Shown here: in pieces, positions 2,129 through 42,804 of the stretch
How the letters are laid out: the number at the start of each line of letters is the position of its first letter
Position numbering within the stretch: the stretch's first letter is position 1
Origin: an uncultured Acidobacteriota bacterium
Lineage (GTDB): Bacteria; Acidobacteriota; Vicinamibacteria; Vicinamibacterales; UBA8438
Length of the DNA stretch: 64,000 bases
NCBI GenBank assembly: GCA_913043225.1
Contig: CAJWLU010000001.1
Coordinates: forward strand, 288,001 to 352,000
Direction of reading: 5' to 3'
Made by a program: the position numbers and the translations under genes
The notes under the pieces: generated by a model
Told to the model about the DNA's origin: nothing
Seen by the model: only the letters and a program-made list of their open reading frames with translations
The model's database searches: none

Positions 2129-2419
2129 CCCCCCGGAATCAAGCGTTAGGATTTCGGCGAGGTCGAGAAGATACAGGGTCGTGCCCACCAGCGTCGGCAC
2201 GGTCTAGGCGGTAGCCCAGACTACATCTGCATGTCCTCGACCCATGAACCTGTCTGGCGATAACCGACCGAGGACCAGCTCACTATCCTCAGCTAGCATA
2301 ACGGTCGACTCGCCCGCCTGCGGAAAGCTCGCATGACTTGTAGCCCTGATCCTGCCAGACCACCTCGCCCATGTGGACATCCATTGCGGTCAAGAAGGCG
2401 GACCGTTTCCATATATCGT
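2129..2419 (-). pseudogene. degenerate C-terminal fragment of a PQQ-binding-like beta-propeller repeat protein
   Basis: Minus-strand translation across frameshifts gives AFLTAMDVHMGEVVWQDQG / SHASF...VMLAEDSELVLGRLSP...ATA*TVPTLVGTTLYLLDLAEILTLD. TAG at 2204-2206 falls where W is expected in a WTVPTL..LY motif. Confidence 0.65.
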
Positions 2420-2502
2420 GTGCGCTTCCATCGCCGTGACTCTACCGGACCCAACGCGTTGTCGAGCCTCGGGCCGTGTGGTAGAAGGACATCAACACCT
2501 TT

Positions 2503-3612
2503 ATGACTGCGCCCGTGGACCGCGTTTCACCTTCGTCTAGCCTGGAAGCCCTTGGCTGGAACGAGGATCTCGCGCGACACTTCGCGGCCGAGACCACCGA
2601 GTGCCGGCCGGCGCGGGTTGCAGTGGCCCACAATTACCTGTTCCAGCTACTCGGCGCATCCGGCGCCCTGATGGCCGAGGTCTCGGGCCGACTCCGCCAT
2701 CAGACCGCGACGCAGGACGCGATGCCGGTCGTGGGTGACTGGGTCTCGGCCCGGATCCATTCCGACGAGGAGAAGGCCACGATCGAAACGGTGCTGCCAC
2801 GCCGTACCAGCTTCTCGAGGAAAGCGGCTGGCGAAGCCACGCGACGGCAGCTCGTCGCCGCGAACATCGACGTTATCTTTTTGGTCTGCGGGCTCGATGG
2901 CGACTTCAACCTGCGGCGGATCGAGCGCTACCTGGTGGCTATCGCTGACAGTGGAGCGCGTGCGGTCATCGTCCTCAATAAGGCCGACATGTCATCCGAG
3001 CCCGACCGGGCCAGAGCTGAGGTCGCGGCGATGACGCCGGCCTCGCCGATTCACGTGATTAGCTGCCTCGAAGAGGGGGGCGTGGAACCACTCACAGAAC
3101 ATCTTGCCCTGGGCCGTACCATCGCGCTCCTGGGCTCGTCCGGCGTCGGGAAATCCACGATCATCAACCGGATGCTCGGGACGGAGCGTCAACGGACCGG
3201 GGGCGTACGGCGGCGTGACCGCCGCGGACGCCACACCACGACCCAGCGCGAGTTGATCGTGTTACCGACTGGCGGCCTCCTCATCGACACACCGGGCATG
3301 CGGGAGCTGCAGCTCTGGGATGCCGACGTGGCCACCGATGACGCCTTCGACGATATCGAGGCACTCGCCGCCGGGTGCCGCTTCCGCGACTGCCGCCACG
3401 ACCAAGAACCACACTGCGCTGTCCGCGGAGCCGTCAAGGCGGGCACGCTGCCGGCCGCCCGACTGGCCAACTACCGAACCCTGACCCGTGAGGCCAACGA
3501 GCTACGGCGCCGACGCGAGGAACTGGCCCGGCAGGACGAGCAGCGTCGGACCAGATCGGCCTATCGCTCCATGCGCACCATGCGGCACAAACGACTCGGA
3601 TCGGAGCCATGA
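2503..3612 (+). CDS. rsgA: ribosome small subunit-dependent GTPase A
   Basis: Circularly permuted GTPase motifs NKAD, GSSGVGKS, GRHTT, DTPG, plus the zinc finger CRFRDCRHDQEPHC. Confidence 0.96.
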   Translation: MTAPVDRVSPSSSLEALGWNEDLARHFAAETTECRPARVAVAHNYLFQLLGASGALMAEVSGRLRHQTATQDAMPVVGDWVSARIHSDEEKATIETVLPRRTSFSRKAAGEATRRQLVAANIDVIFLVCGLDGDFNLRRIERYLVAIADSGARAVIVLNKADMSSEPDRARAEVAAMTPASPIHVISCLEEGGVEPLTEHLALGRTIALLGSSGVGKSTIINRMLGTERQRTGGVRRRDRRGRHTTTQRELIVLPTGGLLIDTPGMRELQLWDADVATDDAFDDIEALAAGCRFRDCRHDQEPHCAVRGAVKAGTLPAARLANYRTLTREANELRRRREELARQDEQRRTRSAYRSMRTMRHKRLGSEP

Positions 3613-4829
3613 CCTCAACGAGAACGCTGCTTGTCGCACTGGTCGGGACCGTCGTTGCCCTCACCGGGCTGACCGCCCAAGATGACCGGATCACAGTCCG
3701 GGCCGGCCGCCTCCTCGACGGCACCGGCCGGATCGTCGAGAACGCGCGGATCACCATCGACGGGTCCGAGATCGCCGGGGTCGACCGGCTCCGGGGCGCG
3801 GTCACCTATGACCTGTCCGGAATGACGGTCATGCCGGGTCTGATCGATACCCACGTCCACCTTACCTCCCATTTCGACGCTGATGGGGAGACACATGACG
3901 ACCTCGACGAGTCACCCGCCCGGACGATTCTCTATGCGGCGGAGAACGCGTACAAGACACTGCAGGGTGGGGTCACGACGATCCAGAGCCTCGGCAGCCC
4001 GCTCGACGCCGAGCTGCGGGACGCCATCGCGAGAGGCTCTCTGCCCGGTCCTAGGATCCTGAGCTCGCTCGGCGCCATCCGCGAGAGTACCGGCACGCCG
4101 GACGAGATCCGCACGGCCGTGCGACAACTGGCCAACAACGGCGCCGACGTGATCAAGATCTTCGCCTCGGCCAGCATCCGCGACGGCGGCGAACTGGTGA
4201 TGAGCCCTGAACAGCTTGAGGCCGCCTGCGGCGAAGCGACCGCCGTCGGGCTCAGGTCAGTCGTCCACGCGTACGGCACGGAAGGGGTGACGGCGGTGGT
4301 CGAGGCCGGATGTGGGGGTATCGAACACGGCACCAGATTCGACGACGAGACGATCGCGCTAATGGCCGAACGGGAAACGTATCTCGACCTGCACCTGGAG
4401 TTGCTCTGGAGCAACTACGACGAATATCGAAGCGCCTTTATCGGACGGGGCAACTACACCGAAATGGGCTACGCGCGGATGGCGGAGGCCAGGCGCGCCG
4501 GCCTCGACACCTTCCAGCGGACCGTCAGTCACGGGGACGTCAAGATGGTCTTTGGCACCGACGCGCTGGCCGGTGCCCATGGACGGAACACGGACGAGCT
4601 CGTAGCGCGGGTTCGGATCGGACGGCAACGCCCGATGGACGCCATCGTGTCGGCCACCTCACTGGCGGCCGAATCGCTCGGGCTCGGTGACCGGATCGGC
4701 ACTCTCGCACGCGGCTACGAGGCAGACCTGATCGCGGTGCCCGGGGACGCGCTCGCCGACATCGTCGCATTGCGTAACGTCAGATTCGTAATGAAGGGCG
4801 GGGTGGTATTCAAGTACGAAGCACAGTAA
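3609..4829 (+). CDS. secreted amidohydrolase family protein (Xaa-Pro dipeptidase-like)
   Basis: Signal peptide; metal-site motifs PGLIDTHVH, IKIFAS, VHAY, EHG, FGTDA; ATGA overlap with rsgA. Confidence 0.88.
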   Translation: MTSTRTLLVALVGTVVALTGLTAQDDRITVRAGRLLDGTGRIVENARITIDGSEIAGVDRLRGAVTYDLSGMTVMPGLIDTHVHLTSHFDADGETHDDLDESPARTILYAAENAYKTLQGGVTTIQSLGSPLDAELRDAIARGSLPGPRILSSLGAIRESTGTPDEIRTAVRQLANNGADVIKIFASASIRDGGELVMSPEQLEAACGEATAVGLRSVVHAYGTEGVTAVVEAGCGGIEHGTRFDDETIALMAERETYLDLHLELLWSNYDEYRSAFIGRGNYTEMGYARMAEARRAGLDTFQRTVSHGDVKMVFGTDALAGAHGRNTDELVARVRIGRQRPMDAIVSATSLAAESLGLGDRIGTLARGYEADLIAVPGDALADIVALRNVRFVMKGGVVFKYEAQ

Positions 4830-31211: not shown

Positions 31212-32810
31212 ATGCCGACCCTGAGCCAGTGCACCTGCTGCGCCGCCCTTGTCACGCTGCTACTGAGCGCACCGATTGCCATCGCACAGGATCCGCCCGA
31301 GTTACCGGAGCAGTATCGCGATCCGATCGACCTGATGGCCGAAGTGCTCGGCACCTACGCCTTCGAGATCTCCTCGGAGTCCGCCGAGGCGCAAGACTTC
31401 TTCAACCAGGGGATGCAACTGATGTTCGCCTTTGCCAAGGCGGACGCGGTACGGTCGTTCCGTGAGGCGTGGAAGCGGGATCCAAACTGCGCCATCTGCT
31501 ACTGGGGCGAGGCGTGGGCCTGGGGCTCGTATCTGAACGGGCCAATGCGACCGCCCGAGGCACCGCACGCCTACTCCGCCGCACAGCAGGCTAGACGGCT
31601 GTCAGAAGTGCACGCCAACGCGAAAGAGCGGGCCTACATCGATGCGCTGTCGGTGCGCTATGTCGAGAACTTCGAAGTCGACAAACGGCGCGATCAGGAC
31701 GAGGCCTACGCCGAAGCGATGCGACTACTGGTGGACCGGTTCCCGGACGACCTCGACGCGACCACGCTCTATGGCGATGCGCTCTTTCTGCTGGAGCCCA
31801 GGCGTGGCACCCGCGACCTCAACGACCCCAGGGTTCAGCGACTGCATGCGGTGCTCGAGAGCGTGCTCGAACGGGACATCAAACATCCCGGCGCCTGTCA
31901 CCTCTATATCCACGCCACCGAGTCGACCTCACGACCGGACAAGGCCGAGGCCTGTGCGGAGCATCTTGGGCTGGCCATCCCCGGAGCAAGCCATATCAAC
32001 CACATGCCGTCGCACACCTGGAACGAGGTGGGCCGTTGGGGTGATGGCGTCCGCTCGAACCTGCGCGCCTGGCACTCGGACCAGATGTCCGAGTTCGGAA
32101 CCGGGATCGCCATTTACCCAACCCACAACCTGCACATGCTGCTCTTCGCCGCGTCGATGGACGGGCAAGGCGCGATCGCCATCCAGGCAGGCAAGGATTT
32201 CCACAAGCTGACCGGCAACAGCGTGCATCATGCCCTAACCCTAATCCGCTTCGGAAGATTCGACGAAGTCCTCAAGGTTACCGAGCGCCCTGACAGTGAG
32301 GTGGCCGGCGGGCTGTGGGACTTCGCGCAGGGCTACGCGCACCTGCGTGAGGGCGACGTCGACTTCGCGGAGGTCTATCTGAATCGGGTGAAGGAGCTAG
32401 CGGCGACCTCTGAGGCGCAGATGCGGTTCCACCCGGCAGAGACCCTGCTCGGCGTAGCCGCAGGCATCCTCGAGGGCGAGCTCCATCGTGAGGCAAGCGA
32501 CCTGAACGCCGCCGAATCCGCGTTTGAGCAAGCCGTTGAGCTTGAGGACAGCCTGGCCTACGACGAACCTGAGCCGCTGCCCTTTGCCGCCAGACACTGG
32601 CTGGGGGCGCTCCTCCTCGAACGGGAACGATGGGCCGAGGCGGAGCAGGTGTTCAGAGCTGAGCTCGATGACCACCCCCACAACGGGTGGTCCCTGTTCG
32701 GCCTGAAGACGGCGATCGAAGCCCAGGGTCGCACCGACGCCGACGTGGATGCCGACCTCGAACAGAGCTGGGCGCGCGCCGACACCTGGCTGTACACGCC
32801 GCGTTATTGA
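31212..32810 (+). CDS. secreted TPR-repeat protein
   Basis: Signal peptide; AQDFFNQG, HPGACHLYIH, HMPSH, PHNGWSLFGL; helical repeats. Confidence 0.85.
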   Translation: MPTLSQCTCCAALVTLLLSAPIAIAQDPPELPEQYRDPIDLMAEVLGTYAFEISSESAEAQDFFNQGMQLMFAFAKADAVRSFREAWKRDPNCAICYWGEAWAWGSYLNGPMRPPEAPHAYSAAQQARRLSEVHANAKERAYIDALSVRYVENFEVDKRRDQDEAYAEAMRLLVDRFPDDLDATTLYGDALFLLEPRRGTRDLNDPRVQRLHAVLESVLERDIKHPGACHLYIHATESTSRPDKAEACAEHLGLAIPGASHINHMPSHTWNEVGRWGDGVRSNLRAWHSDQMSEFGTGIAIYPTHNLHMLLFAASMDGQGAIAIQAGKDFHKLTGNSVHHALTLIRFGRFDEVLKVTERPDSEVAGGLWDFAQGYAHLREGDVDFAEVYLNRVKELAATSEAQMRFHPAETLLGVAAGILEGELHREASDLNAAESAFEQAVELEDSLAYDEPEPLPFAARHWLGALLLERERWAEAEQVFRAELDDHPHNGWSLFGLKTAIEAQGRTDADVDADLEQSWARADTWLYTPRY

Positions 32811-33961
32811 GACACACCGAAGTCGAGGGGACGACCACGCCAGGTGCTCGTCTTCAGCTCCAGCACGTGGCGATCGGGATCACGCAAATAGAGACTGCGA
32901 CCTCCCTCCGGCCAGTCGACTACGCTCTCGATCTCGATACCCGCGTCGTGAAGACGCGACCGCCAGCGGTCCAGATCGGCCGGGCGGATACCGAACGCTA
33001 GATGCTGCTGCCCGCGACCGTCCGAGGACGGAATCGTTCCATGTGGCGTCACCGTCGGTTCGACCGACGCGCCCTGCTTGAATAACAGCAGCACTTGATT
33101 CTCGGCCACGTCGAGGGCCGCCATCCGCTCCATCGGCTCCATCGCGCGGGTGAAGCCCAGCACGCGCTGATAGAACTCAACCGACCGACCGAGATCGGCG
33201 ACGTAAAGCGCCGTCTCGGTCACCGCAACTACCTTCTCCTCGGCTGCCAGAGCCCGCTTCTCTGCCTGCTCCTCCTCACGCACGCGCGTGAGCGCGGACG
33301 CGATGAGCCCGGTCGGCACCGCCACCACCCCCAGCCCCGCCATCAGAACCAGGAACGTGAACATACGCCCGCCCGCCGTCACGGGGAAGGCGTCTCCGTA
33401 GCCGACTGTAGTTAGGGTGACCACCGCCCACCAGAGACTGTCGAAGACCGACGCAAATGTCTCCGGCTGAGCGGCGTTCTCGAAGTAATGGATGCCCACC
33501 GCGGACAGATAGATGAGCACCATGGCGGTGCCCAGAAAGGCGATCAGTTCCTCGCGCACGAGGACGGCAGCCCGTCGGAACCTAGCCATCGCGTCGCCGT
33601 AGCGGGCCAGTTTGAGGATGCGGGCCAGACGGAACAGCCGCAGCGCGCGGATCGAACGCAAGTCGACCCCCAGCGCCACATAGAACGGCAAGATCGCCAG
33701 CAAGTCGACCACGCCGAAGAAGCTGAAGACGAACGTGAGCTTCCGGTCCGCCACCAGTAACCGGAGCAGATATTCAATGGTAAACACGACCACCGAGAAC
33801 ACTTCCAGGCGGCGAAGGAGTTCTAGGGTCTCCGGTGACAGATCCGGCAGGGTCTCGATCGAGAACGCGGCAATGGTGAGAAGGATGACCCCCACCACGA
33901 CGGCGTCGAAGAGACGACCGGCGAAGGTATCGGTATCCTCGACGATGCGCTTCAGACTCAC
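32804..33961 (-). CDS. voltage-gated-type potassium channel (6TM) fused to a C-terminal VOC/glyoxalase domain
   Basis: S4 LRSIRALRLFRLARILK; filter TTVGYGD; then with no stop ETALYVADL...HLAF...SLYLRDPDRHVLEL. GTG 33961 lies 6 nt after TACACT. Confidence 0.88.
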   Translation of the reverse strand: MSLKRIVEDTDTFAGRLFDAVVVGVILLTIAAFSIETLPDLSPETLELLRRLEVFSVVVFTIEYLLRLLVADRKLTFVFSFFGVVDLLAILPFYVALGVDLRSIRALRLFRLARILKLARYGDAMARFRRAAVLVREELIAFLGTAMVLIYLSAVGIHYFENAAQPETFASVFDSLWWAVVTLTTVGYGDAFPVTAGGRMFTFLVLMAGLGVVAVPTGLIASALTRVREEEQAEKRALAAEEKVVAVTETALYVADLGRSVEFYQRVLGFTRAMEPMERMAALDVAENQVLLLFKQGASVEPTVTPHGTIPSSDGRGQQHLAFGIRPADLDRWRSRLHDAGIEIESVVDWPEGGRSLYLRDPDRHVLELKTSTWRGRPLDFGVSQ

Positions 33962-34010
33962 GCCGGAAGTGTATCGCGGGCAAGCTGGCCCGAGACGCGA
34001 ACGGAGGGGA

Positions 34011-35099
34011 TCAATACAGGAGCATGGCGACGACAAACATCAGGATGGCCAGCATCACCACCCACTGCCAGACCTCCTGCTTATCGTCGGACGGGATGAG
34101 CTGGAACGAGATACTGCGGTGGCTGTCGACCACGTTGCGGAGGAAGTTGGCTGATTCGAGCTGCTGGCTGTCCATAGAAAAGGTGCGCCCGCCAGTGCGC
34201 TGCACCACCATGTTGATGCCATCCTGCTCCAGCCGGGTCCGCTGCCCGTCGAGGTCGGCCTCCAACGTCTCGTCATAGTCGACACCACGAATGTAGTCGA
34301 GCAGCACGGTGTCCACGTTGACCCCAGTCCGGCTCCCGATCCCGATCGGGTAGATCGCGAGCCCCCGGCGGTTGAACTCACCGAGAGCGATATCCAGACG
34401 GCTCCGCTGTTCGGCGTCGATCAGAAAGTCTCCGTCGGTGAACAGCAGGACCAGACGGTCGCTCCGCTCCTCGGGCTGCCAGTCGTCCTCACCCGACTCG
34501 AACCGATCCTGATTGTCGAGCGACAGATAGATCGACTCGAACGCGGTCGCGATGTCGCTGTCCCAGGGAAACGCATCGCCAGACAGTGTCAACGGCGGAC
34601 CGATCCGCCCCACCTCTTCCACGAACCGTTCAGCGTTGGACGACAGGTGGACCCGACGTAGTGCCGTGGTGCCCCAAACGAACACGGCGGTACGGTCGCC
34701 CGGCGTCAGCAGGTCTTGCGTGTACAGACTCAGCGCCTCCCGCACGGCGAGGTCGAGTCGCGATGGACCAAGGTCCTTGACCCACATGGAGGCCGAGGCG
34801 TCGACCGCCACGATGACGTCCACGTCGCCCCGCTTGAAGCTCGACGCACCGTAGACCCAGAACGGCCTCGCGGCGGCCACCGCCACGAGCGTGAGTGCTG
34901 CAATCGCGAAGAACCAGAACTTAATGTGACCGAACAGGGGGTAGTTCGACCCTTCGCTGCGGGCCGGTCTCAATTGCAAGCGGAGCGCAAAGACGACCAG
35001 TCCGAAGGCCAGCAGCAGCCCAGCGATCGGCACGATAGCCAGATACTCCGGGTTGGCGAACTCGACACTGTCCCGGAACAGGCTGGTGATGGCGTCCAC
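34011..35099 (-). CDS. vWA domain membrane protein (MxaL/BatB-like)
   Basis: N-terminal TM pair, MIDAS VDASASM, LFTDGD, C-terminal TM; last gene of the moxR module. Confidence 0.8.
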   Translation of the reverse strand: MDAITSLFRDSVEFANPEYLAIVPIAGLLLAFGLVVFALRLQLRPARSEGSNYPLFGHIKFWFFAIAALTLVAVAAARPFWVYGASSFKRGDVDVIVAVDASASMWVKDLGPSRLDLAVREALSLYTQDLLTPGDRTAVFVWGTTALRRVHLSSNAERFVEEVGRIGPPLTLSGDAFPWDSDIATAFESIYLSLDNQDRFESGEDDWQPEERSDRLVLLFTDGDFLIDAEQRSRLDIALGEFNRRGLAIYPIGIGSRTGVNVDTVLLDYIRGVDYDETLEADLDGQRTRLEQDGINMVVQRTGGRTFSMDSQQLESANFLRNVVDSHRSISFQLIPSDDKQEVWQWVVMLAILMFVVAMLLY

Positions 35100-35134
35100 C
35101 GCTCGGCTTCCTCAGACTGCAGTCCGTCTCAAGG

Positions 35135-35800
35135 TCAGCCGCGGCGGCGGCGGACCGGGGTGCCCTCGCCCTTCATCTGCTCGAGCTCGGGCGGCTCGAT
35201 CTCGCGGGGCGCCTCAAGGGCCCGACGCACCGCCTCGGGGTTGCTGGTCAAGTCGTAGTTCCACTTGTAGTCGAACCGGTCGGTGAGGTCGCTCCGGAGC
35301 GCCCGCTCGTAGTCCGGGTTGATGGTCTCCATCACCTCCACGATGATGGCTTCCTTGAGACGCGCGGCATCCGGGTCTTCACCGTCGATGGCGCGATAGC
35401 GCTCCCGTGCCAGCAGGAACTTCGCGTTCGCGAGCAGATGCGACGCCCGCGCATCGTCCACTTCATCAGACAGATCGTCCACGACCGTCTGGAGGTCGCC
35501 AGTCAGATAGCTGTAAGACGCCTGCTGCAAGAAAGCATCCTGAAAGAGATAGGAGTCAACCAGCTGCTGGACACCCCAGGCGCGGCTCCCTTCGTAGAAC
35601 GCTGACACCTCGGCGAGTTGCTGCTCGGCGGTCTCGTAGTCGGCGCGCTGCACGCTATCGCTGAGCCCCTCCAGGTTGTCGTAGAACACAGCCAGGCTGC
35701 GGGACGGCACCCACACGGCGACGAAGAACGCCACCGCCAGCACGAGGCCGATGAGATAACGGAAGGAATGTTCCTTGTCGAGCAGGTCTGTCAGTCGCAT
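35135..35800 (-). CDS. MxaK-like membrane-anchored helical/TPR protein
   Basis: One N-terminal TM; YERALR...DYKWNYDL resembles the MxaK/BatC C-terminal motif; position between two vWA genes. Confidence 0.6.
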   Translation of the reverse strand: MRLTDLLDKEHSFRYLIGLVLAVAFFVAVWVPSRSLAVFYDNLEGLSDSVQRADYETAEQQLAEVSAFYEGSRAWGVQQLVDSYLFQDAFLQQASYSYLTGDLQTVVDDLSDEVDDARASHLLANAKFLLARERYRAIDGEDPDAARLKEAIIVEVMETINPDYERALRSDLTDRFDYKWNYDLTSNPEAVRRALEAPREIEPPELEQMKGEGTPVRRRRG

Positions 35801-35846
35801 GTCGTCTGTTCAGGACCGGCCGCTGAGCCGGCCTGACTCCTCGATT

Positions 35847-36977
35847 CTAGGGGGTCGTCCCCCAGAGCAGCTCCGAAACGAATCCGAGCGGTATCCCGAC
35901 TACCAGTAGTCCCATAGCCACGAGTAGGAATCTGGAATAGATGGGCACTCTCAGAGCACGGTGCTTCAGTTCGACCCGCACCGCTTCACGCTCGTCGATC
36001 GCCTGGTAAGCGCGCAGCAGGCTGTCCTCGCTGGTGACGTCGAAGTAGTCGCCGCCATACTCCTGAATCTGGGCCACCAGCTGCGGCACACTCGGATTCA
36101 GGAAGCTCGCGGTACGGGCATCACTCGTGTTGATGTAGATCAAATACGGGACGATGTTGCGCTTGCTAAGCTCTTCGAACTCCGCATCCGGGAACTCGTC
36201 GACCGCGGCATCGGTGATGATGAGCACGGCACGATTCTGATTCCGTCCGCGCCCTTGAACCGCTTCGTCCCGGTCAAAGTGCTTCACGATGTCCTGCAGC
36301 GGCCGGATGATGTTGGTGTCCCCTTCGGCGGGAATAATCCGCACCTTGTCCCGCGGCACCACCATCGCCTTATCGAGCCGCTGGGTCATCACATACGGCG
36401 CATCCCAGACCTGGTAGTAGTAGAGCTCGTCGTCCATGACGAAGTCATCCACCATGTAGGGATAGGTCGAGAACAACCAGAGCGACACACGGTCGTTCTT
36501 CTCACGACGCATCTCGAGAAACTCGAGGTGCGCGTCTCGAGCCACCTCGGCCTTCGACTTGTTCGTATCAGGGAACTCCCATGCCATCGAACCCGACGTG
36601 TCGACGAGATCGATCCGCACACGCGACTCGACCGACCCACTCACTTCCTCAGTCGCAGTAAGAAACGGATCGGCCACCGAGACGACGAGCATGACGAGCG
36701 CAGCTGCGAGCAAGACCTTCGGCGCCGTGTGCAGCACGCGGACCCAAAGCCGTTTCCGGTGCCTCGCCTCGATGAGATGGCCAGAGTGCTGTCGCGCATG
36801 CCGCTTGCGGGTCGAGGCTAGCCGCACCAGCGTCAGAGCGAGAACCACACCGACCGCCACCGCCAGCGCCACGGCCATACCGACATCGCCGTACCGCACT
36901 TGGGCATAGTCGGTCTCGAGCAGCTCGCGAAAGCCGCTATCGAGGAAGGCGACCAGCTCGTTCCATGGCATCAACAT
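35847..36977 (-). CDS. vWA domain membrane protein (MxaC/BatA-like)
   Basis: MIDAS VDTSGSM, DRVSLWLFS, LIITD, AIDERE, TM segments at both ends. Confidence 0.82.
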   Translation of the reverse strand: MLMPWNELVAFLDSGFRELLETDYAQVRYGDVGMAVALAVAVGVVLALTLVRLASTRKRHARQHSGHLIEARHRKRLWVRVLHTAPKVLLAAALVMLVVSVADPFLTATEEVSGSVESRVRIDLVDTSGSMAWEFPDTNKSKAEVARDAHLEFLEMRREKNDRVSLWLFSTYPYMVDDFVMDDELYYYQVWDAPYVMTQRLDKAMVVPRDKVRIIPAEGDTNIIRPLQDIVKHFDRDEAVQGRGRNQNRAVLIITDAAVDEFPDAEFEELSKRNIVPYLIYINTSDARTASFLNPSVPQLVAQIQEYGGDYFDVTSEDSLLRAYQAIDEREAVRVELKHRALRVPIYSRFLLVAMGLLVVGIPLGFVSELLWGTTP

Positions 36978-36993
36978 GAGATCGCTCGCAGGT

Positions 36994-38088
36994 CTAGCCG
37001 CCGAACATGCCCTTCACCGAGTTGAGCAGCCGGACGTGCGGCCGCAGGTCGGCGAGGGCTCCCGAGATTGCGTCCGCGTCGGCCGACGGGTTGTCGACCG
37101 ACGGCGCGCCTAACTCCAATCCTCGCTGGTACGTCACCAGGAAGTCGGTGAGCACGGCCAGTGCCTCCTTACGGTGGCCATCATCGAGACCGGCCACGAA
37201 CCGCTGGATGCCGAGCGCCGTGTCCCCCGAATTGAGGTCCGACAGGTCGGCCTGCAGGTAGTCGCGAAGCGCCAACACCAACCCTCGCTGGACCTCGCGG
37301 ACTCGGTCCCCTTCGGCGCCGGACGGCAGATCCTGCAACCCCCCCAGCGCCCGGCCCACGGCCCGCCGCGCCTCCCAGATCGATGGCTGGATCGGAATCT
37401 GCGCCTCGATCTGGGCAAGCTCGTCCTCTTCCTGCTGCTTCTCGACCGACAAACCCTTCGGCTTGCGGGCCAAGCGAACCAGCATGACGAGCCAGAGCAC
37501 CAGCGGCAGCGGCGCGACGGTCCAGGCCATTGTCCGGAAGAAGGTCGCTTGATTGGCGAAGCTGCCCAGCTCGATCGTGTCGCGGATGTCGAGCAGTGGC
37601 TCGTCGGTCACCGAGGTGACATACCGCACTAGCCCCTGTCCACCGTCCACCTGCTGCACCTCGGCGTCCTCGATATCTTCACCGAGGTCGCGCACCAGGT
37701 AGTAGAAGCTGAAGTTCGGGAGCACGTAGGTCATCTTGTTCGGGTCAACCAGCCTGAACCCGTAGATGAAGTCCCAGATGTGCTCGTCCTCGACGCGGGT
37801 CTTCTCCACCGTCAGCGAAACGCCCTCGAAGGGATGCACCGGCAGGGTCTCTGGTGCCACCCGATCCTCCAGCACGATGATCTCCTGCCCATCGTCGATC
37901 AGGTCGGGGAACCGCACCCGATACCGCTGGGTGATGAGGTCGCCGGTCTTCACCACCGTCGGTTCCAGCTCGAGCGTCTCGACCCGCACCGGGCCCATGG
38001 GCGCATCGATCGCGTCAGGCGGCTGGGCCAGCAGGCTGGTCGGAAGCAACAGAGCGAAGGCAAGTGCGAACGCCGACGTGCGTGTCAT
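36994..38088 (-). CDS. MxaA/BatD-like exported protein with one TM segment
   Basis: Signal peptide; GDLITQR motif; beta-rich domain, TM, helical tail; position after DUF58. The start could be 38115. Confidence 0.6.
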   Translation of the reverse strand: MTRTSAFALAFALLLPTSLLAQPPDAIDAPMGPVRVETLELEPTVVKTGDLITQRYRVRFPDLIDDGQEIIVLEDRVAPETLPVHPFEGVSLTVEKTRVEDEHIWDFIYGFRLVDPNKMTYVLPNFSFYYLVRDLGEDIEDAEVQQVDGGQGLVRYVTSVTDEPLLDIRDTIELGSFANQATFFRTMAWTVAPLPLVLWLVMLVRLARKPKGLSVEKQQEEDELAQIEAQIPIQPSIWEARRAVGRALGGLQDLPSGAEGDRVREVQRGLVLALRDYLQADLSDLNSGDTALGIQRFVAGLDDGHRKEALAVLTDFLVTYQRGLELGAPSVDNPSADADAISGALADLRPHVRLLNSVKGMFGG

Positions 38089-38126
38089 GTTCACCGGTTG
38101 TCCATCCCTGGTCATCGATGTCCGAT

Positions 38127-39044
38127 CTAGCGAGCCGTGCGAGAAATCAGGAACTTGGGCAACTCCTCGATGTGGTTCTCTGGCGTCAGCACGACCGAGT
38201 CGATCCCCGCCCAATACTTCAACTTGTATTGCAGCGTTTCGCGTGACTCCTCGATCCGACGACGGATCGCTCCAGCCTTCCTGGCAGAGATCACCGTCTG
38301 TTTGCCGGTCTCCATATCCGAGATCCGGATGTAACCCAGGCGGCTCTTGACCGAGAACTCCTCGGGGTCGTCCAGAATGAGCACGATCATATCGTGCTTC
38401 GCCGCCACGGTGCTGAGGAGCTTGAAGTCGATTGCGTCGTGGTCGTTGACGAGATCGACCAGGTCGGTGAGCACCACGACCGAGTGCCGCATCTTCAGTC
38501 TAGCCAGCATGAAATCGATGGCCACCTTGAGATTCGCCGGACGCCGCGACGGGAACTCCCGCTCGAGCTTCAGCTTCTCGAAGATCTGATGCGCCATGTA
38601 AAAGACCTGCGAGCTGCCCATCTTGGGCTTCATGTAGAGCTCGATCCGATCCGAGTAGCCGAGCAACCCGACCGGGTCACGCACGTTGGACCGGGTCAAC
38701 CCGATGTTGCCCAGCAGATCCAACATCAACAGTGCCTTGTTGGACCGTTGGGATACCTGAAACAGCGTCGAGTAGGAGAGGTCGCAGATGATGAGCGTCC
38801 GCATCTCCTTGGGCTCCATCCGCTCGATCCGGAACAGCTTCTCCGGATACGTGCGCATGCTCAGGTTCCAGGCCACGTCCTTGAGTGGCTGGCCCGGCCG
38901 CCACTGATCGACGCCGACGATGTCGTAGCCGGCCCCCTTGAACCCGCTCTTGTGCTCGCCGAAGTGGATGCTCGTGGAGGGCTTGCGCGCTCGGATCCCG
39001 TGCTTGATGTCACGAAACCTGGCGTAGACCTCCTCTACTTCCAA
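38127..39044 (-). CDS. DUF58 family protein (MxaS-like)
   Basis: GEHKSGFKGAGYD, WRPG..LKDVAW, DLSYST, ISDMETG; overlaps the moxR 3' end. Confidence 0.88.
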   Translation of the reverse strand: MEVEEVYARFRDIKHGIRARKPSTSIHFGEHKSGFKGAGYDIVGVDQWRPGQPLKDVAWNLSMRTYPEKLFRIERMEPKEMRTLIICDLSYSTLFQVSQRSNKALLMLDLLGNIGLTRSNVRDPVGLLGYSDRIELYMKPKMGSSQVFYMAHQIFEKLKLEREFPSRRPANLKVAIDFMLARLKMRHSVVVLTDLVDLVNDHDAIDFKLLSTVAAKHDMIVLILDDPEEFSVKSRLGYIRISDMETGKQTVISARKAGAIRRRIEESRETLQYKLKYWAGIDSVVLTPENHIEELPKFLISRTAR

Positions 39045-40150
39045 GGAGGAACCTCCATGTCGCGGACGATCTGTTGCAAGAGTTCGTCCTTGTCGACGGA
39101 GAACTCCATACCTTCGCGCAGGACCAGCCGGTGGGCGAGCACCGGCCCCGCGACCTCCTTAATGTGATCCGGCGTGACCTGCAGGTCGCCGTTGAAGAAG
39201 GCGAACGTCCGCGCCACGGCCTCAAGGTGAAAATGGACACGAGGCGAGATCCCGACGCGGATATACTCCTTCACCGCCCGGGCGGCCCGTCCCTGGACCC
39301 GATGGGGACGCGTGTTCCGGATGAGCCGGACCTTGTACTGCGCCCCGTATTCAGACATCGTGACGTTGTCGTAGATATAACGGGCAATATCGAGCACCTC
39401 GTAAAGATCGGTCAGCTTCTCGACCTTCCGTCCCACGACGTTGCCGGCGGTGATGTTGTACTCGTCCTCTTCCCTCTCCGGGTCCATCATATTGATGGAG
39501 ATGGTGGTGCGGTCGAGCTGCGCGACAGGGTTGGCGAAGGTGCCTTCTTCCTCGCCGAAGATATTCTCGGTGCAAATGACCATGAAGAACCGGGGTCCCG
39601 TGATGTCACTGAAGTCACAGGACAGCGGGAAGAGGGGCAAGACCTTACCCTCGGCCAGGTTCCCGTAGTCCGAGCTAAGAGTGGCCGAGCTCTCCTCCAT
39701 GCCCTCGAGCACGGCCGCCTTGGTTTTGCCTGACAACCGGTTGTCCTCGTCAATGAGGACGATGTGGGCCATCAGCTTGCCCGGTTTGAAGACGAGCTTG
39801 CGGCTGCCGTCGGTCTCCTCGACGATCGTCTCGTAGCCGAGGATGTCCTCGGGCATGTAGGTCGGCAGCCCCTGGATCCGTTCGAACTTCGCGTCGATCG
39901 CCATGGCGCAGGCGCTAACCAGGTCGGTCTTCCCGGTGCCGGTCGGCCCCCTGAACATGACGTGCGGCTGCCTGAGCAGCTTGCTCTGGCTAAGCTTGTC
40001 CGTGTAGGGGAGCAGCGTAAAGAACGCCCAGGACAGGATGCGCGCGGCATCGTCGAGACCATAGAGCCACTTGGTCGACTCCTTCTGGAACCGCTGGACC
40101 ACTTCATTGGCGCGGTCGAAGTCGATAGTGCGTGTCGGTTGAACGGCCAT
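39035..40150 (-). CDS. moxR: MoxR family AAA+ ATPase (divergent)
   Basis: Walker A GPTGTGKT, RIQG..MPEDILG, Walker B IDEDNR, AQLDR, GISPR, VLAHRL; SD GAGAGG before ATG 40150. Confidence 0.9.
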   Translation of the reverse strand: MAVQPTRTIDFDRANEVVQRFQKESTKWLYGLDDAARILSWAFFTLLPYTDKLSQSKLLRQPHVMFRGPTGTGKTDLVSACAMAIDAKFERIQGLPTYMPEDILGYETIVEETDGSRKLVFKPGKLMAHIVLIDEDNRLSGKTKAAVLEGMEESSATLSSDYGNLAEGKVLPLFPLSCDFSDITGPRFFMVICTENIFGEEEGTFANPVAQLDRTTISINMMDPEREEDEYNITAGNVVGRKVEKLTDLYEVLDIARYIYDNVTMSEYGAQYKVRLIRNTRPHRVQGRAARAVKEYIRVGISPRVHFHLEAVARTFAFFNGDLQVTPDHIKEVAGPVLAHRLVLREGMEFSVDKDELLQQIVRDMEVPPWK

Positions 40151-40282
40151 GTAATCCTCTCGCGCTCCGGGCGCCTCGAACATGGCAGGCGGCCGCTCGC
40201 ACGACCGGCCCCTGCCGGCGGTAAGTGTGGCCGCGTGCGACCACACCGTCAAGATAGGTATTGGGTGTCCGACACCGGGTGC

Positions 40283-42643
40283 CTAGCGGGGGCCCCCACC
40301 CACGGTGAAGCCGACATAGAACTCACGCCCCGGCGACGGCTCGAAGTAGCGGCCACCCCATGCGTTGGTAATCCCCGAAGAGTTGTAGCGCTCATCGAAG
40401 ATGTTGTCGAAGCCGACGAACGGCCGCACATCGACGTCACCGATCTGCGCGTCCCAGCCGAAGCGGAGGTCGACTACCGTATAGGCCCAGTTGAACACCG
40501 TGTTGGCGTTGTTCAGAGCGTAGTCGTCGTTCCAGCGCACGGTCGCGCCAGAGCGCAAACCGAAGGGCGCGGTGTAGTTGAACCCTGCGAATAAACGGTG
40601 GGGCACCGCACCCGGCTCGAGCATGCCGGAGAAGTCGTTCCCCTCGGGCGTGAAGTTCTCGAACACGAAGTCCTGATAGGTGTAGGCGACGCGAACGTCG
40701 AAGCTAGAGGTCGGCACCCAGTCAAGCGCCAGTTCGAACCCGTCGCGCGAGGTCTCTCCGGCGTTGCGGAAAAACGTTTCTTCGGTGATCGGGCTCTGGA
40801 ACGGCACCAGGGCACTATCGACGGTCGAGAAATAAACGGCCACCTCGTAGCGAAGCCGAGCCGCCTCGGCGAGACCGCGGACACCCACCTCGAAGCTCTG
40901 GAGATCCTGCGGCTCCAGATTCTGGTTGAATCCCCCCGAGCCGTCCTCGGTGTTCGACAGCTCGACGGTGGTCGGCGTCTCGTAGGCGGTCGAGAAGTTC
41001 CCGAACAAGTTCACCCCGGGCGCAGCAGCGAACGTAATGCCCACCGAGGGGCTCACCGCATTCATGGTGCGCTCGCCAGACTGGTCGCCATCGTCCAGCT
41101 TCCGGTCTCCGGCCTGGAAATCGTAGTAGTCCCAGCGCACGCCGGCACTGAGGCGGACCCGGTCTGTCGGCGAGATGCCGATCTGGGCGAACGGACCGGC
41201 CGACATTACTTCCTCGGTCTGGTCCACGAGCAGACTGCCGCTGGTAGCTCGCCCCCCGGCTGTAGTCGGCGCGACCTGCCTAAACTCCATTCGGTCGTCG
41301 TTCTGTGAGGCCACGTCGAGGCCGGCAGCCCAATCGATGCCGGTGCCGCCGCGTTGCGTGCTGCCGATGTACTCGGAACGGAACCCGAATCCGTTCCGAC
41401 CGAGGTCGACGTTCCGAAACGCACCGACGGCGCCCAGATCCCGCCACATGCCCCAACCAGTGGCACGAAACACCTGGGTTCCGCTCAGCCGGTGCTCGAG
41501 GGTGATGCCGCCTTGTCCCTGGGTCGCGGCCTCGCCCCAGTTCCGAGACGCGGCGACGCCTCGGGCCAAACACGCGCCAGACAGGCAGTTTCCGTCGCTA
41601 CCGCGGACCGGATCCCCGCGCGCATCAGACTCGTTAAGGAAACTCGGACTCTCGGCAAAAGGCGAATCGTAGAGGTTGAAGATGCCCCGGATTTCGGTGT
41701 CGGCGCCTAGTTCATGCCGCATGACGAAATTGGCCTGTGTAATCTCGGCCGCGCCATTGTCCCGAAAACCGTCAGTTCCAAAACGGCTGGCACTCAACAT
41801 GAACTGCGTACTCGCGCTGCCGCCGTCGACCCGCAGTTGCTGGCGGTTGTAGCCATAGCTACCGAACTGTACGTCGGGGCGAATGGTCAGGGCCCTCGAC
41901 TCGTCAAACGTGGTCTGTAGATTGATCACGCCGCCCGCCGCGTTGCCATAGAGTACCGAGCTCGGCCCACGGATGACGTCGATCCGGCCCACCGACCCGA
42001 GGTCCACGTTGCCCGGCTCAGTCGTCCCGTCCGCGGTCGTGATCGGAATGCCGTCCTGGATGATCGCCACCCCGCGTAGGCCGAAGCGAGGCTGCGGAGC
42101 GCGGATGCTGAGTCCAATGCCCCCAGACAACCCGTAGTTGCGACGGTTCTGCACGTAGAGCCCGGGAATACCGCGGAGCGCCTCGTCGAGCGACGATCGG
42201 CGCTGAGCAAACTCGATCTGGTCCCTGGACACGACGGCAACTGAATTCGGGACGCCTGAGAGATCCTGGTCGGTCCGGGTAACAATGACCGTCTCATCAA
42301 GCGGCGCCAGCCCGAGGGTCATATCGACCGTCACGGCCACGTTTGCCACGGTCGTGGGCTGCTCTTCGCTCCCGAACCCAGGCAGCACGCCCCGCACGGC
42401 ATAGGTACCGGCCGGCAGATTCAGGATCTCGTAGCGGCCAAGACCGTCGCTCACACCCAAGTGGACCGATCCAGTCGAGGTCGCGGTCGCCGTCACGGTG
42501 ACCCCGGGCAGCACGGCGCCGCTCTCGTCACGCGTGACTCCTTCGATTCGTCCTGACTGCGCAGCTACCTCTGAGACCAACACAACAACCAGCAGCATGG
42601 CCACCCATGCCCCCAACTTCAACAAGTGCCAAACGGTACTCAT
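40283..42643 (-). CDS. TonB-dependent receptor, YncD/PqqU-like
   Basis: Plug PGLYVQNRRNY...FGLRG...DGIP.T.ADG...RGPSSVLYGNAAGGVI; AYETPT..EL; C-terminal GRYFEPSPGR; N-terminal carboxypeptidase-regulatory-like domain. Start 42643 or 42598. Confidence 0.9.
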   Translation of the reverse strand: MSTVWHLLKLGAWVAMLLVVVLVSEVAAQSGRIEGVTRDESGAVLPGVTVTATATSTGSVHLGVSDGLGRYEILNLPAGTYAVRGVLPGFGSEEQPTTVANVAVTVDMTLGLAPLDETVIVTRTDQDLSGVPNSVAVVSRDQIEFAQRRSSLDEALRGIPGLYVQNRRNYGLSGGIGLSIRAPQPRFGLRGVAIIQDGIPITTADGTTEPGNVDLGSVGRIDVIRGPSSVLYGNAAGGVINLQTTFDESRALTIRPDVQFGSYGYNRQQLRVDGGSASTQFMLSASRFGTDGFRDNGAAEITQANFVMRHELGADTEIRGIFNLYDSPFAESPSFLNESDARGDPVRGSDGNCLSGACLARGVAASRNWGEAATQGQGGITLEHRLSGTQVFRATGWGMWRDLGAVGAFRNVDLGRNGFGFRSEYIGSTQRGGTGIDWAAGLDVASQNDDRMEFRQVAPTTAGGRATSGSLLVDQTEEVMSAGPFAQIGISPTDRVRLSAGVRWDYYDFQAGDRKLDDGDQSGERTMNAVSPSVGITFAAAPGVNLFGNFSTAYETPTTVELSNTEDGSGGFNQNLEPQDLQSFEVGVRGLAEAARLRYEVAVYFSTVDSALVPFQSPITEETFFRNAGETSRDGFELALDWVPTSSFDVRVAYTYQDFVFENFTPEGNDFSGMLEPGAVPHRLFAGFNYTAPFGLRSGATVRWNDDYALNNANTVFNWAYTVVDLRFGWDAQIGDVDVRPFVGFDNIFDERYNSSGITNAWGGRYFEPSPGREFYVGFTVGGGPR

Positions 42644-42804
42644 TTTCACGAATCCCCCCCCCCAAATTATTTTCGATACACGCATGCACCGACGGCATCC
42701 TCGAAAAACAAACACCGACGGAACACGGGCCTTGATCGAAGCACTCCTCGAAGCCCCTTGTGTCGTACTCTTCCGAGCAACTCAACTACCTACCAGCAGA
42801 CCGG

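Follow-up and report, generated by a model that had tools for sequence, protein, structure and literature searches.

The window, a 64,000-nt stretch of DNA from an uncultured Acidobacteriota bacterium, carries on its minus strand a gene in which a potassium channel, a short charged linker and a VOC (glyoxalase/Fos-like) domain are read in a single frame. The features of this gene are listed below.

32804..33961, minus strand: entire gene of 385 codons and a TGA stop, starting with GTG; channel, linker and VOC in a single frame
33599..33925, minus strand: voltage-sensor domain S1-S4 (residues 13-121), placed by the helices of the full-length model, the Kv4.3 alignment and invariant columns
33599..33658, minus strand: S4 (residues 102-121), seven basic residues at each third position from R102 to R120
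33479..33595, minus strand: S4-S5 linker helix and S5 (residues 123-161), from the full-length model
33392..33448, minus strand: pore helix and selectivity filter (residues 172-190), with TVGYGD at 185-190 (33392-33409)
33287..33376, minus strand: S6 (residues 196-225) with an invariant P216/G218 hinge, from alignments and the full-length model
33233..33286, minus strand: charged linker (residues 226-243, 18 residues), modelled as continuing the S6 helix up to residue 242
32846..33232, minus strand: VOC domain (residues 244-372), two beta-alpha-beta-beta-beta modules, from PF00903, AF2 and Foldseek
33215..33217, minus strand: codon of E249, candidate metal ligand 1, in beta-1, seven residues past the S6-linker helix; aligns with FosA His7
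33002..33004, minus strand: codon of H320, candidate metal ligand 2; aligns with FosA His67
32858..32860, minus strand: codon of E368, candidate metal ligand 3; aligns with FosA Glu113
32807..32845, minus strand: C-terminal tail (residues 373-385), modelled with low confidence

The frame stays open upstream as far as a TTG at 34036; homologues begin with MSLKRIVE, matching the GTG start rather than this TTG. The end of a convergent TPR gene (31212-32810, plus strand) overlaps the stop codon region of the fused gene by 7 nt. A promoter and terminator scan of 32500-34300 returned no promoter-like sites, and two terminator-like sites against 1.3 expected. An operon with the MoxR, DUF58 and VWA genes was rejected as a conserved feature, since in relatives the channel is separated from the last VWA gene by extra genes, one of which lies on the opposite strand. 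As for RNA, the junction was not covered in run X18, and run X4 (an oligo-dT RNA library) gave a single 151-nt contig (33203-33353) that spans the entire linker and only 30 nt of the VOC part; DNA carry-over is possible in this run, so the contig does not establish transcription across the junction.

The N-terminal part had been described in the earlier note as a voltage-gated-type K+ channel holding S1-S4, an Arg-rich S4, the TVGYGD filter and S6 in one ORF, and Pfam profiles and alignments bear this out. Ion_trans (PF00520) matches residues 16-231 of the 385-aa protein with 115.4 bits against a cut-off of 25, and Ion_trans_2 matches the same protein with 59 bits. Among 59 relatives, the S4 basic residues (R102, R105, R108, R111, R114, K117 and R120) are invariant save R114; R114 and Y188 of the filter are each conserved in 90% or more, and the remaining filter residues T185, V186, G187, G189 and D190 are invariant. 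In the Kv4.3 alignment, F60 and E63 of S2 and D86 of S3 correspond to the charge-transfer residues of Kv channels. The combination of an Ion_trans profile, a K+ filter and S4 basic residues with S2/S3 counter-residues classes the protein, as far as its sequence tells, as a voltage-gated K+ channel.

The charged linker that had been noticed between S6 and the VOC domain is present in the ORF and reads RVREEEQAEKRALAAEEK. In the full-length model, which was built on an alignment (A3) with only five rows over the VOC, one helix spans residues 196-242 and beta-1 starts at 249; because pLDDT falls below 50 at residues 241-249, a rigid coupling between S6 and the VOC is unsupported. Channel-only orthologues terminate inside the first ~10 residues of the linker. 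It was also pointed out that a GAGGAG in the linker might allow the VOC part to be made separately from an internal GTG. The motif is indeed there, 12 nt ahead of an in-frame GTG (V247), and a second product from this codon would retain beta-1, so that the gene would yield both a fused protein and a free VOC; MthK, which also makes a free RCK, is a precedent for two products from one gene. This reading is nonetheless quite improbable. The arrangement GAGGAG-N12-GTG occurs in G000, G001 and L023, but L024 has GAAGAG, a synonymous change, and L026-L028 have GTC at the V247 codon without GAGGAG, and the signal is thus not conserved among relatives. Moreover, the 12-nt spacer is long, GAG GAG merely codes for the linker Glu-Glu, and the tetramer itself already provides partners for two VOC dimers.

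The in-frame joining of channel and VOC, on which the earlier description depended, holds up in independent copies. The frame is open in a same-genus genome and in five metagenome contigs of two lineages (G001, L023, L024 and L026-L028), and the fused form also appears in four protein clusters. No stop or chimera at the junction was found in seven DNA copies or in the contigs of two studies: contigs from DNA runs X2 and X3, which belong to different studies and were compared at the level of contigs, bridge the junction, the X3 contig with 35 differences and a net 6-nt deletion. Relative to G001, dN/dS is 0.084 for the channel, 0.025 for the linker (seven synonymous changes and one non-synonymous) and 0.112 for the VOC; judged from these codon changes, channel, linker and VOC are each under purifying selection. 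That two genes were joined by chimeric assembly or by loss of a stop codon is therefore highly improbable, given that the same frame recurs in seven DNA copies and four protein clusters of different sources, that the junction is bridged in two studies and that selection acts on the linker. Even in G009, where the gene is split over two contig ends, the pieces match fused P0005 and L028. The gene product is one polypeptide: a 6TM voltage-sensor K+ channel of canonical layout whose S6 leads, via a short charged linker modelled as a helix, into a complete VOC domain on the cytoplasmic side.

Five of the 120 best matches are fused homologues, four of them with identities of 98, 88, 75 and 68% and the fifth partial, and in word-index searches, on which the count of fused forms rests, fused proteins make up four of the nine longer proteins bearing a VOC of this family. 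In a search of representatives, the fused cluster itself was absent from the best 150; fused forms can hide behind channel-only representatives, so the lack of Ion_trans in all 22 longer matches is weak evidence. An ESM Atlas search returned Ion_trans clusters only, with scores of 0.79, under the counting level. The fusion is rare, being found in three of 104 genomes of the family. In two sister-genus genomes (G015 and G018), which retain the synteny VWA-221aa-VWA-channel-<TPR, the syntenic orthologues encode channels of 241 and 236 aa without a VOC. In the channel tree, seven fused rows form one clade (SH-aLRT 97) nested in a 24-row clade that is otherwise unfused. Together with the VOC-less orthologues, this looks like a single, recent gain of the domain, by which a channel gene already present in a lineage of uncultured marine Acidobacteriota was extended at its 3' end by a VOC. 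Two separate origins were considered and rejected: the tree of free VOCs splits the fused VOCs, with the free-standing G094 grouping with the P0005 lineage (SH-aLRT 96), but a tree that keeps the fused VOCs together is not rejected (p-AU 0.30). A K+ channel adjoins free VOC genes at one of 21 distinct loci (G047), which on a rough estimate is compatible with chance.

The C-terminal part had been called a complete VOC domain with E/H/E candidate metal ligands in TETALY, QHLAF and VLELK, and this description proves sound. Glyoxalase (PF00903) matches residues 250-369 of 385 with 47 bits against a cut-off of 20.6, and the AF2 model of the domain (pLDDT 96) shows the paired beta-alpha-beta-beta-beta modules that, with the profile, place it in the VOC superfamily. 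With this model, Foldseek returned 399 PDB matches at E <= 0.001; all 38 chains listed are VOC-fold entries, the best being 3r4q_A (TM 0.83/0.87, rmsd 1.9-2.6 A). In a 64-sequence alignment of the family, E249, H320 and E368 are three of the four invariant columns (E, G, H, E), and they occupy the beta-1, beta-5 and beta-8 positions typical of VOC metal residues, making them putative ligands. A further alignment (A4), combining channel, fused and free VOC proteins, was discarded as the free VOCs were misaligned (26-38% identity versus 35-56% in alignment A2).

A homodimer of the VOC domain was predicted with a score of 0.89 in three of three runs, while the best of three controls scored 0.00; at least 96% of the roughly 220 contacts agree between runs and partner pLDDT is at least 90. 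Among proteins of solved structure, 20 of 30 same-chain pairs and one of 23 single chains attained the mark used, and the pass may reflect the predictor's memory of solved structures, since VOC dimers of this kind are among them. Within the prediction, E10 of one copy contacts residues 81-85 and 129 of the other, and the pair is predicted to be an intertwined FosA-like dimer with inter-subunit metal sites. Such a strong predicted dimer could also point to a structural role only, in which VOC dimers would stabilize or assemble the tetramer in the manner of T1 or C-terminal bundles, with no response to a ligand. This seems unlikely: the channel-only orthologues (236-241 aa) at the same locus manage without such a domain, and a purely structural domain would not need the E/H/E triad, which stays invariant among fused sequences down to 56% identity over linker and VOC.

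The earlier note had further proposed a ligand- or electrophile-gated channel with an unusual sensor domain, by analogy with the methylglyoxal response of Kef systems. Of this proposal, the fusion itself stands, and gating by the sensor domain is a matter of interpretation; the electrophile analogy is weakened because the VOC is no glyoxalase I and a search of the 96%-complete genome turned up none of the genes for glutathione synthesis (gshA, gshB or GCS2). At E <= 0.001, the glyoxalase I model TIGR00068 matches five places in the genome, but not this gene, and stays below its cut-off at each; it is also absent from the best 25 of 35 NCBIfam matches of the fused protein. In addition, the beta-4 position (LLLF) has neither E nor H, and the fourth metal ligand of glyoxalase I is thus missing. 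The domain is nearer to the Fos-type three-ligand VOCs, and a ligand, if there is one, is probably not a glutathione adduct.

PMC10779102 describes FosA as an Mn2+- and K+-dependent fosfomycin:glutathione transferase of the VOC superfamily, a domain-swapped dimer with sites built from both chains, which requires K+ bound in a loop beside the active site. The VOC domain here shares the fold and, by alignment, a candidate metal site whose three ligands fall where those of FosA do; a dimer with shared sites is likewise predicted, and the equivalent loop retains residues aligning with FosA Glu98, Gly99 and Ser101. It differs in that its first ligand is Glu rather than His, its Foldseek TM to FosA is only about 0.66, and it is channel-fused in a genome in which glutathione synthesis genes were not found.

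This resemblance lends weight to another explanation, considered possible though somewhat unlikely, that the VOC is still a family-type metalloenzyme, possibly a Fos-like transferase or hydrolase that depends on a thiol or on water, and that fusion only anchors it to the channel or ensures co-expression; the link to K+ would then run through the enzyme, not the gate. Consistent with this, the nearest named relatives are Fos enzymes, the five fused sequences keep, of the residues conserved in the family, all four that are invariant and 13 of the 14 that are near-invariant, and the VOC evolves under constraint (dN/dS 0.11). Members of the family, mostly free-standing proteins of ~140 aa, are also fused to DinB/MST, SnoaL, cytidine deaminase, GNAT, NTPase_I-T or a second VOC, and other enzymes are the partners in 10 of the 22 longer members checked; such a range would be more in keeping with a catalytic module for detoxification than with a dedicated sensor. 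On the other side, no enzyme activity is known for the family, and all Fos models score far under their cut-offs (36.1 bits versus 180 for Fos_GSH, 35.3 versus 171 for FosB and 33.5 versus 170 for FosX). Furthermore, the linker is short and helical, varies by one codon in length across DNA copies and is strongly conserved in sequence within the genus, none of which a mere tether needs.

The reading favored here, at somewhat less than an even chance, is that the VOC dimers form a cytoplasmic regulatory module in which occupancy of the E/H/E sites biases the S6 gate of the fused channel. As the VOC dimerizes and the channel is tetrameric, two VOC dimers are expected per channel, and each would link the S6 extensions of two subunits, with E249 of one chain completing the H320/E368 site of the other in the modelled pair. 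These inter-subunit sites might be occupied by a divalent metal, either alone or together with a small-molecule substrate, and beta-1 would then shift; since beta-1 starts seven residues past the S6-linker helix, such a shift would bias the gate, and voltage-gated K+ conductance could thereby be tuned by a chemical or metal signal. We infer a role as gating sensor as a plausible one, against which it must be weighed that orthologues of 236 aa evidently function with no cytoplasmic domain at all and that the retention of family-conserved residues would fit a retained enzyme equally well. A more far-reaching form of this proposal, which is doubtful, regards the protein as a bacterial "chanzyme" with a new ligand-gating module: two FosA-like VOC dimers under a Kv pore, whose inter-subunit metal or substrate sites, including E249, would drive or bias the S6 gate and convert a metal, a small electrophile or, via the FosA-like K+ loop, cytoplasmic K+ into an electrical signal. 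If so, a single evolutionary step would have turned a free-standing detoxification enzyme into a channel sensor.

The locus offers a clean system, as the ancestral (236-241-aa channel, same locus) and derived (channel plus VOC) states both occur in sister genera, the linker is short and a free-standing form of the VOC domain is known. If the VOC modulates gating, the protein would represent a compact natural case of an enzyme fold turned channel sensor, with a two-fold module coupled to a four-fold pore, and a possible scaffold on which chemically gated K+ channels could be engineered; otherwise, the gene would be a lineage-specific Rosetta-stone fusion of modest interest. In the literature searched, no paper was found that describes a VOC or glyoxalase domain on a K+ channel or any other ion channel.

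Compared with known systems, the channel part shares S1-S6, the spacing of S4 basic residues, the F/E/D charge-transfer residues, TVGYGD and the P-x-G hinge with KvAP and the eukaryotic Kv1, Kv2 and Kv4, and its PDB sequence matches include Kv4.3 (E 3e-27) and KvAP (E about 1e-15 to 1e-16). Unlike Kv channels, it has no T1 domain, and ~235 aa of channel are followed by the VOC; no VOC domain occurs on solved channels among the matches listed (60 of 204 PDB matches). The closest solved relative of the VOC by both sequence (E 1e-10) and fold, PDB 3r4q, is a structural-genomics entry from Agrobacterium tumefaciens with which it has the H and E motifs in common; 3r4q, however, is a free-standing 160-aa protein, its name of "lactoylglutathione lyase" is the depositors', and no paper on it was found in the literature searched, where the matches were sodium-channel mutants of that name.

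K+ efflux under an electrophile-derived ligand, the logic once suggested for the fused channel, is exemplified by KefGB and KefFC; according to PMC3412212, KefGB is closed by GSH and opened by S-lactoylglutathione, the product of glyoxalase I. Kef proteins are, in contrast, of the CPA2 antiporter type with a KTN domain and have their enzyme as a separate protein, and neither CPA2 Na_H_Exchanger nor KTN/TrkA_N is among the seven Pfam matches (E <= 0.1) of the 385-aa protein. In prokaryotic K+ channels, the cytoplasmic domains known to control gating are of the RCK/KTN and cyclic-nucleotide-binding kinds; no TrkA_N/TrkA_C or cNMP_binding is among the same matches, and the VOC fold fills the whole C-terminus. 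In the ligand-gated prokaryotic K+ channels MthK (RCK) and MloK1 (CNBD), the ligand-binding domain is joined to S6, and the aldo-keto reductase Kv-beta and the NUDT9-H domain of TRPM2 are channel regulators with enzyme folds. In each of these cases, gating is tuned by a cytoplasmic domain that binds a ligand or derives from an enzyme and is either attached to S6 or docked below the channel; the VOC differs from these domains in fold, and as a dimer beneath a four-fold pore it implies a dimer-of-dimers arrangement.

A single open frame on the minus strand (32804..34036) contains the gene, whose start was placed at the GTG at 33961, where homologues begin MSLKRIVE and where all seven DNA copies read carry GTG. 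Its product of 385 residues (P0001) is one polypeptide in which the voltage sensor and K+ pore, both canonical, are followed by a conserved short linker (modelled as helical) and an intact VOC domain of a metal-site family. The gene, its surroundings and the Pfam matches of its product are as follows:

31212-32810, plus strand, convergent TPR protein gene
32804-33961, minus strand, channel-VOC gene
P0001 channel part, Ion_trans, 115 bits against a cut-off of 25
P0001 channel part, Ion_trans_2, 59 bits
P0001 residues 250-369 (275-394 of the 410-aa version that was scanned), Glyoxalase PF00903, 47 bits against a cut-off of 20.6
33962-34010, 49-nt spacer between the channel gene and the last VWA gene
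34011-42715, minus strand, all in one direction: TonB-dependent receptor, MoxR-type AAA_3 ATPase, DUF58 protein, 406-aa ORF, VWA, 221-aa ORF, VWA

The S1-S4 segments with an Arg-rich S4, the TVGYGD filter and S6 described in the earlier note were borne out by Pfam, solved structures and alignment, and by sequence the channel part belongs to the canonical Kv type. Its matches among solved structures include Kv4.3, Kv4.2, Kv2.1, Kv1.3, Shaker and Kv1.2 (E 1e-27 to 1e-22) as well as KvAP (E about 1e-15 to 1e-16). Across 59 aligned relatives, the S4 charges R102, R105, R108, R111, R114, K117 and R120, the S2/S3 residues F60, E63 and D86, the filter T185-V-G-Y-G-D190 and the S6 hinge residues P216 and G218 were all invariant or nearly so. 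No RCK, KTN, CNBD or CPA2 domain was found in P0001 by the Pfam scan. In the full-length AlphaFold2 model (mean pLDDT 72.7), S6 is an unbroken helix (196-242) and therefore spans the charged linker RVREEEQAEKRALAAEEK; beta-1 of the VOC domain begins at E249, and pLDDT falls below 50 at residues 241-249.

The in-frame fusion recurs well beyond this contig. Both PF00520 and PF00903 were present in five of the 120 best of 7235 protein-database matches, namely P0002 (98% identity), P0003 (88%), P0004 (75%), P0005 (68%) and the truncated P0006, while the remaining 115, about 218-332 aa long, have the channel alone and share at most 77% identity across it. One channel-only relative, P0007 (332 aa), contains a tandem repeat of about 94 residues covering S3-S4-S5 (alignment columns 145-238), which may be a genuine duplication within the gene or a product of misassembly. 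A search for longer proteins with the VOC part returned nine matches, four of them with a channel (P0002-P0005 again), and the P0003 cluster comprises five full-length 384-aa members from several sources. Comparison with related genomes, as the earlier note had proposed, revealed the fused gene at 89% identity in a genome of the same genus (G001) and, in another genus (G009), a gene broken across two contig ends whose pieces match fused P0005 and L028. Metagenome contigs supplied five further full fused genes (L023 and L024, 384 aa; L026-L028, 379 aa), and linker length varies by just one codon across the fused DNA copies. The junction is bridged with identical sequence by a 4486-nt contig of the public DNA run X2, and also by a 1312-nt contig of run X3 from another study, which differs from the window at 35 positions and by a net 6-nt deletion in a VOC loop. 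By Nei-Gojobori estimates against G001, dN/dS is 0.084 in the channel, 0.025 in the linker (seven synonymous changes, one non-synonymous) and 0.112 in the VOC domain. Because databases, genomes, metagenome contigs, two DNA runs and selection all agree, a chimeric assembly or a hidden stop codon is excluded for practical purposes, and the probability that an artefact joins two separate genes is negligible.

An additional free VOC product from an internal start at V247 was also considered. The linker does contain the GAGGAG that had been pointed out, followed after 12 nt by GTG, in the source genome, G001 and L023. L024 has GAAGAG through a synonymous change, and in the L026-L028 lineage GAGGAG is missing and GTC stands in place of the GTG. 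The motif simply represents the codons for the linker Glu-Glu, and a separate product, although conceivable, is unsupported and very unlikely.

The VOC part, used as query against 1.84 billion representatives, had 1210 matches at E <= 0.001, mostly free-standing proteins of about 135-150 aa among the matches listed. None of the 22 matches checked against Pfam (mostly longer ones) carries a channel, and in ten of them another enzyme or fold lies N-terminal to the VOC domain: DinB/MST, SnoaL (2), cytidine deaminase, GNAT (2), NTPase_I-T, a second VOC (2) and an NADH dehydrogenase fragment (1). Just four columns are invariant in an alignment of 64 VOC sequences (E249, G317, H320 and E368), and five fused sequences retain all of these together with 13 of 14 near-invariant positions. 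Modelled alone, the domain reaches a pLDDT of 96; its top structural match is 3r4q (TM 0.83/0.87), followed by FosA, FosX, FosB, integron-cassette VOCs and ChaP, and its sequence matches include 3r4q (E 1e-10), FosX (2.5e-6) and FosA (9e-6). H320 and E368 align by HMMER with His67 and Glu113 of Klebsiella pneumoniae FosA, and E249, one residue ahead of the aligned stretch, corresponds to His7 by extrapolation; these three FosA residues are Mn2+ ligands (PMC10779102). Both the completeness of the domain and its E/H/E candidate ligands, as originally proposed, hold up. Assignment as a Fos enzyme by NCBIfam was rejected (its highest score, 36 bits, falls far below the cut-off of 180), as was glyoxalase I: TIGR00068 has no match at the fused gene and five weak ones elsewhere in the genome, and the fourth ligand is absent, with LLLF at the beta-4 position. 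Glutathione synthesis genes (PF04262, PF02955, PF04107) gave no match in this 96%-complete genome, control genomes being positive. The suggested parallel with Kef and methylglyoxal is sound for Escherichia coli KefGB, which is opened by S-lactoylglutathione, the product of glyoxalase I (PMC3412212), but probably does not transfer to the channel-VOC protein.

Only a small clade of uncultured marine Acidobacteriota carries the fusion. In two other genera of the family (G015, G018), the channel at exactly this locus is 241 or 236 aa long and stops no more than ten residues into the stretch that forms the linker in P0001. Conserved upstream neighbours, on the strand of the channel gene, encode VWA proteins of 376 and 362 aa with a 221-aa protein between them; downstream lies the convergent gene for the 532-aa TPR protein. 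The seven fused rows of a 64-row channel-domain tree form one clade (SH-aLRT 97), nested in an otherwise unfused 24-row clade (SH-aLRT 95). Among 104 genomes of the family, three have the fusion (one split over two contigs), ten a channel-only match and six a free-standing VOC of the same subfamily (52-60% identity). The nearest free forms are those of G094 (58-61%) and L025 (159 aa, 61%), together with the C-terminal half of P0122, a VOC-VOC protein (62%). In the VOC tree, the free G094 protein joins the P0005-lineage fused VOCs (SH-aLRT 96); a topology with all fused VOCs monophyletic is not rejected (p-AU 0.30). These comparisons are read most simply as a single acquisition of a VOC gene at the 3' end of the channel gene.

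At the G094 locus (L031, G094:C34:1-4000; ORFs at 1236-1697, 2350-3435 and 3445-3753), the free VOC adjoins a transposase-like ORF and a small antitoxin-like ORF, so labelled by eye from translations, which suggests mobility of the VOC gene. The N-terminal PRIGGVIET of this free VOC is similar to PRVKGVIET in the distal linker of the P0005 lineage. Only one of 21 free VOC loci has a channel beside it (L030, G047:C9:811500-815500): there, K+-channel-like ORFs with a TVGFGD filter (3130-3925), seemingly split over two frames (3130-3522, 3248-3925), follow a VOC of the same subfamily (2162-2584, 60% identity) on the same strand after about 0.55 kb.

Upstream of the channel gene, the genes at 34011-42715 constitute a Bat/MoxR-VWA-like cluster; in G015 and G018, too, its 3' part (VWA, 221-aa ORF, VWA) adjoins the channel gene. 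Co-transcription of channel and VWA genes as a conserved feature was rejected because the relatives' spacers hold other genes: in G001 (L016 1757-2547) one of about 255 aa, GNAT-like by eye; in L024 (2378-3219) an apparent frameshifted copy of it, split over two frames; and in L026 (2217-3020) an ArfB-like peptidyl-tRNA hydrolase gene (GGQ motif) plus an opposite-strand gene resembling a 2Fe-2S ferredoxin by eye. At the other end, the channel-VOC and TPR genes overlap by 7 nt at their 3' ends (32804-32810); in channel-only orthologues the two lie 35-100 nt apart.

The VOC domain was predicted to form a homodimer: all three runs scored 0.89 and the best of three controls 0.00, the runs shared at least 96% of contacts, and partner pLDDT was at least 90. 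In the calibration, 20 of the 30 proteins whose structures are pairs of one chain passed the dimer mark, as did 1 of the 23 with single-chain structures; since VOC dimers of this type are in the PDB, the pass indicates resemblance and could reflect structures that the predictor had learnt. In the prediction, the N-terminal strands of the two copies are adjacent, and E10 (E249) of one copy contacts residues 81-85 and 129 (H320, E368) of the other, so that dimers would carry inter-subunit E/H/E sites. Because the domains are predicted to dimerise, a tetramer would hold two VOC dimers, each linking two subunits through their S6 extensions. Metal occupying the inter-subunit sites, with or without substrate, could then reposition beta-1 and, since beta-1 begins seven residues past the S6-linker helix, bias the S6 gate. 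A voltage-gated K+ channel modulated in this way by a chemical signal is our tentative reading, plausible but short of probable. The earlier proposal of a ligand-gated channel with a sensor domain is thus supported in part: the fusion is real and kept and the VOC intact, but gating by it is only inferred. The main competitor, unlikely but serious, is a VOC that is simply a tethered enzyme, which the family's promiscuity in fusion and the domain's fully retained conserved residues suit equally well; a purely structural role for the domain is very improbable.

No description of a VOC domain as a cytoplasmic domain of ion channels was found in the literature searched; to that extent, the protein is a Kv-type K+ channel with a domain type new to channels. 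FosA is a 3D-domain-swapped dimer in which both chains contribute to the active sites, and it is activated about 100-fold by K+ bound in a loop adjoining the active site (PMC10779102). The FosA loop NRSEGAS corresponds to DWPEGGRS of P0001, with the positions of Glu98, Gly99 and Ser101 kept, and by this analogy K+ itself might, speculatively, be a ligand of the VOC domain.
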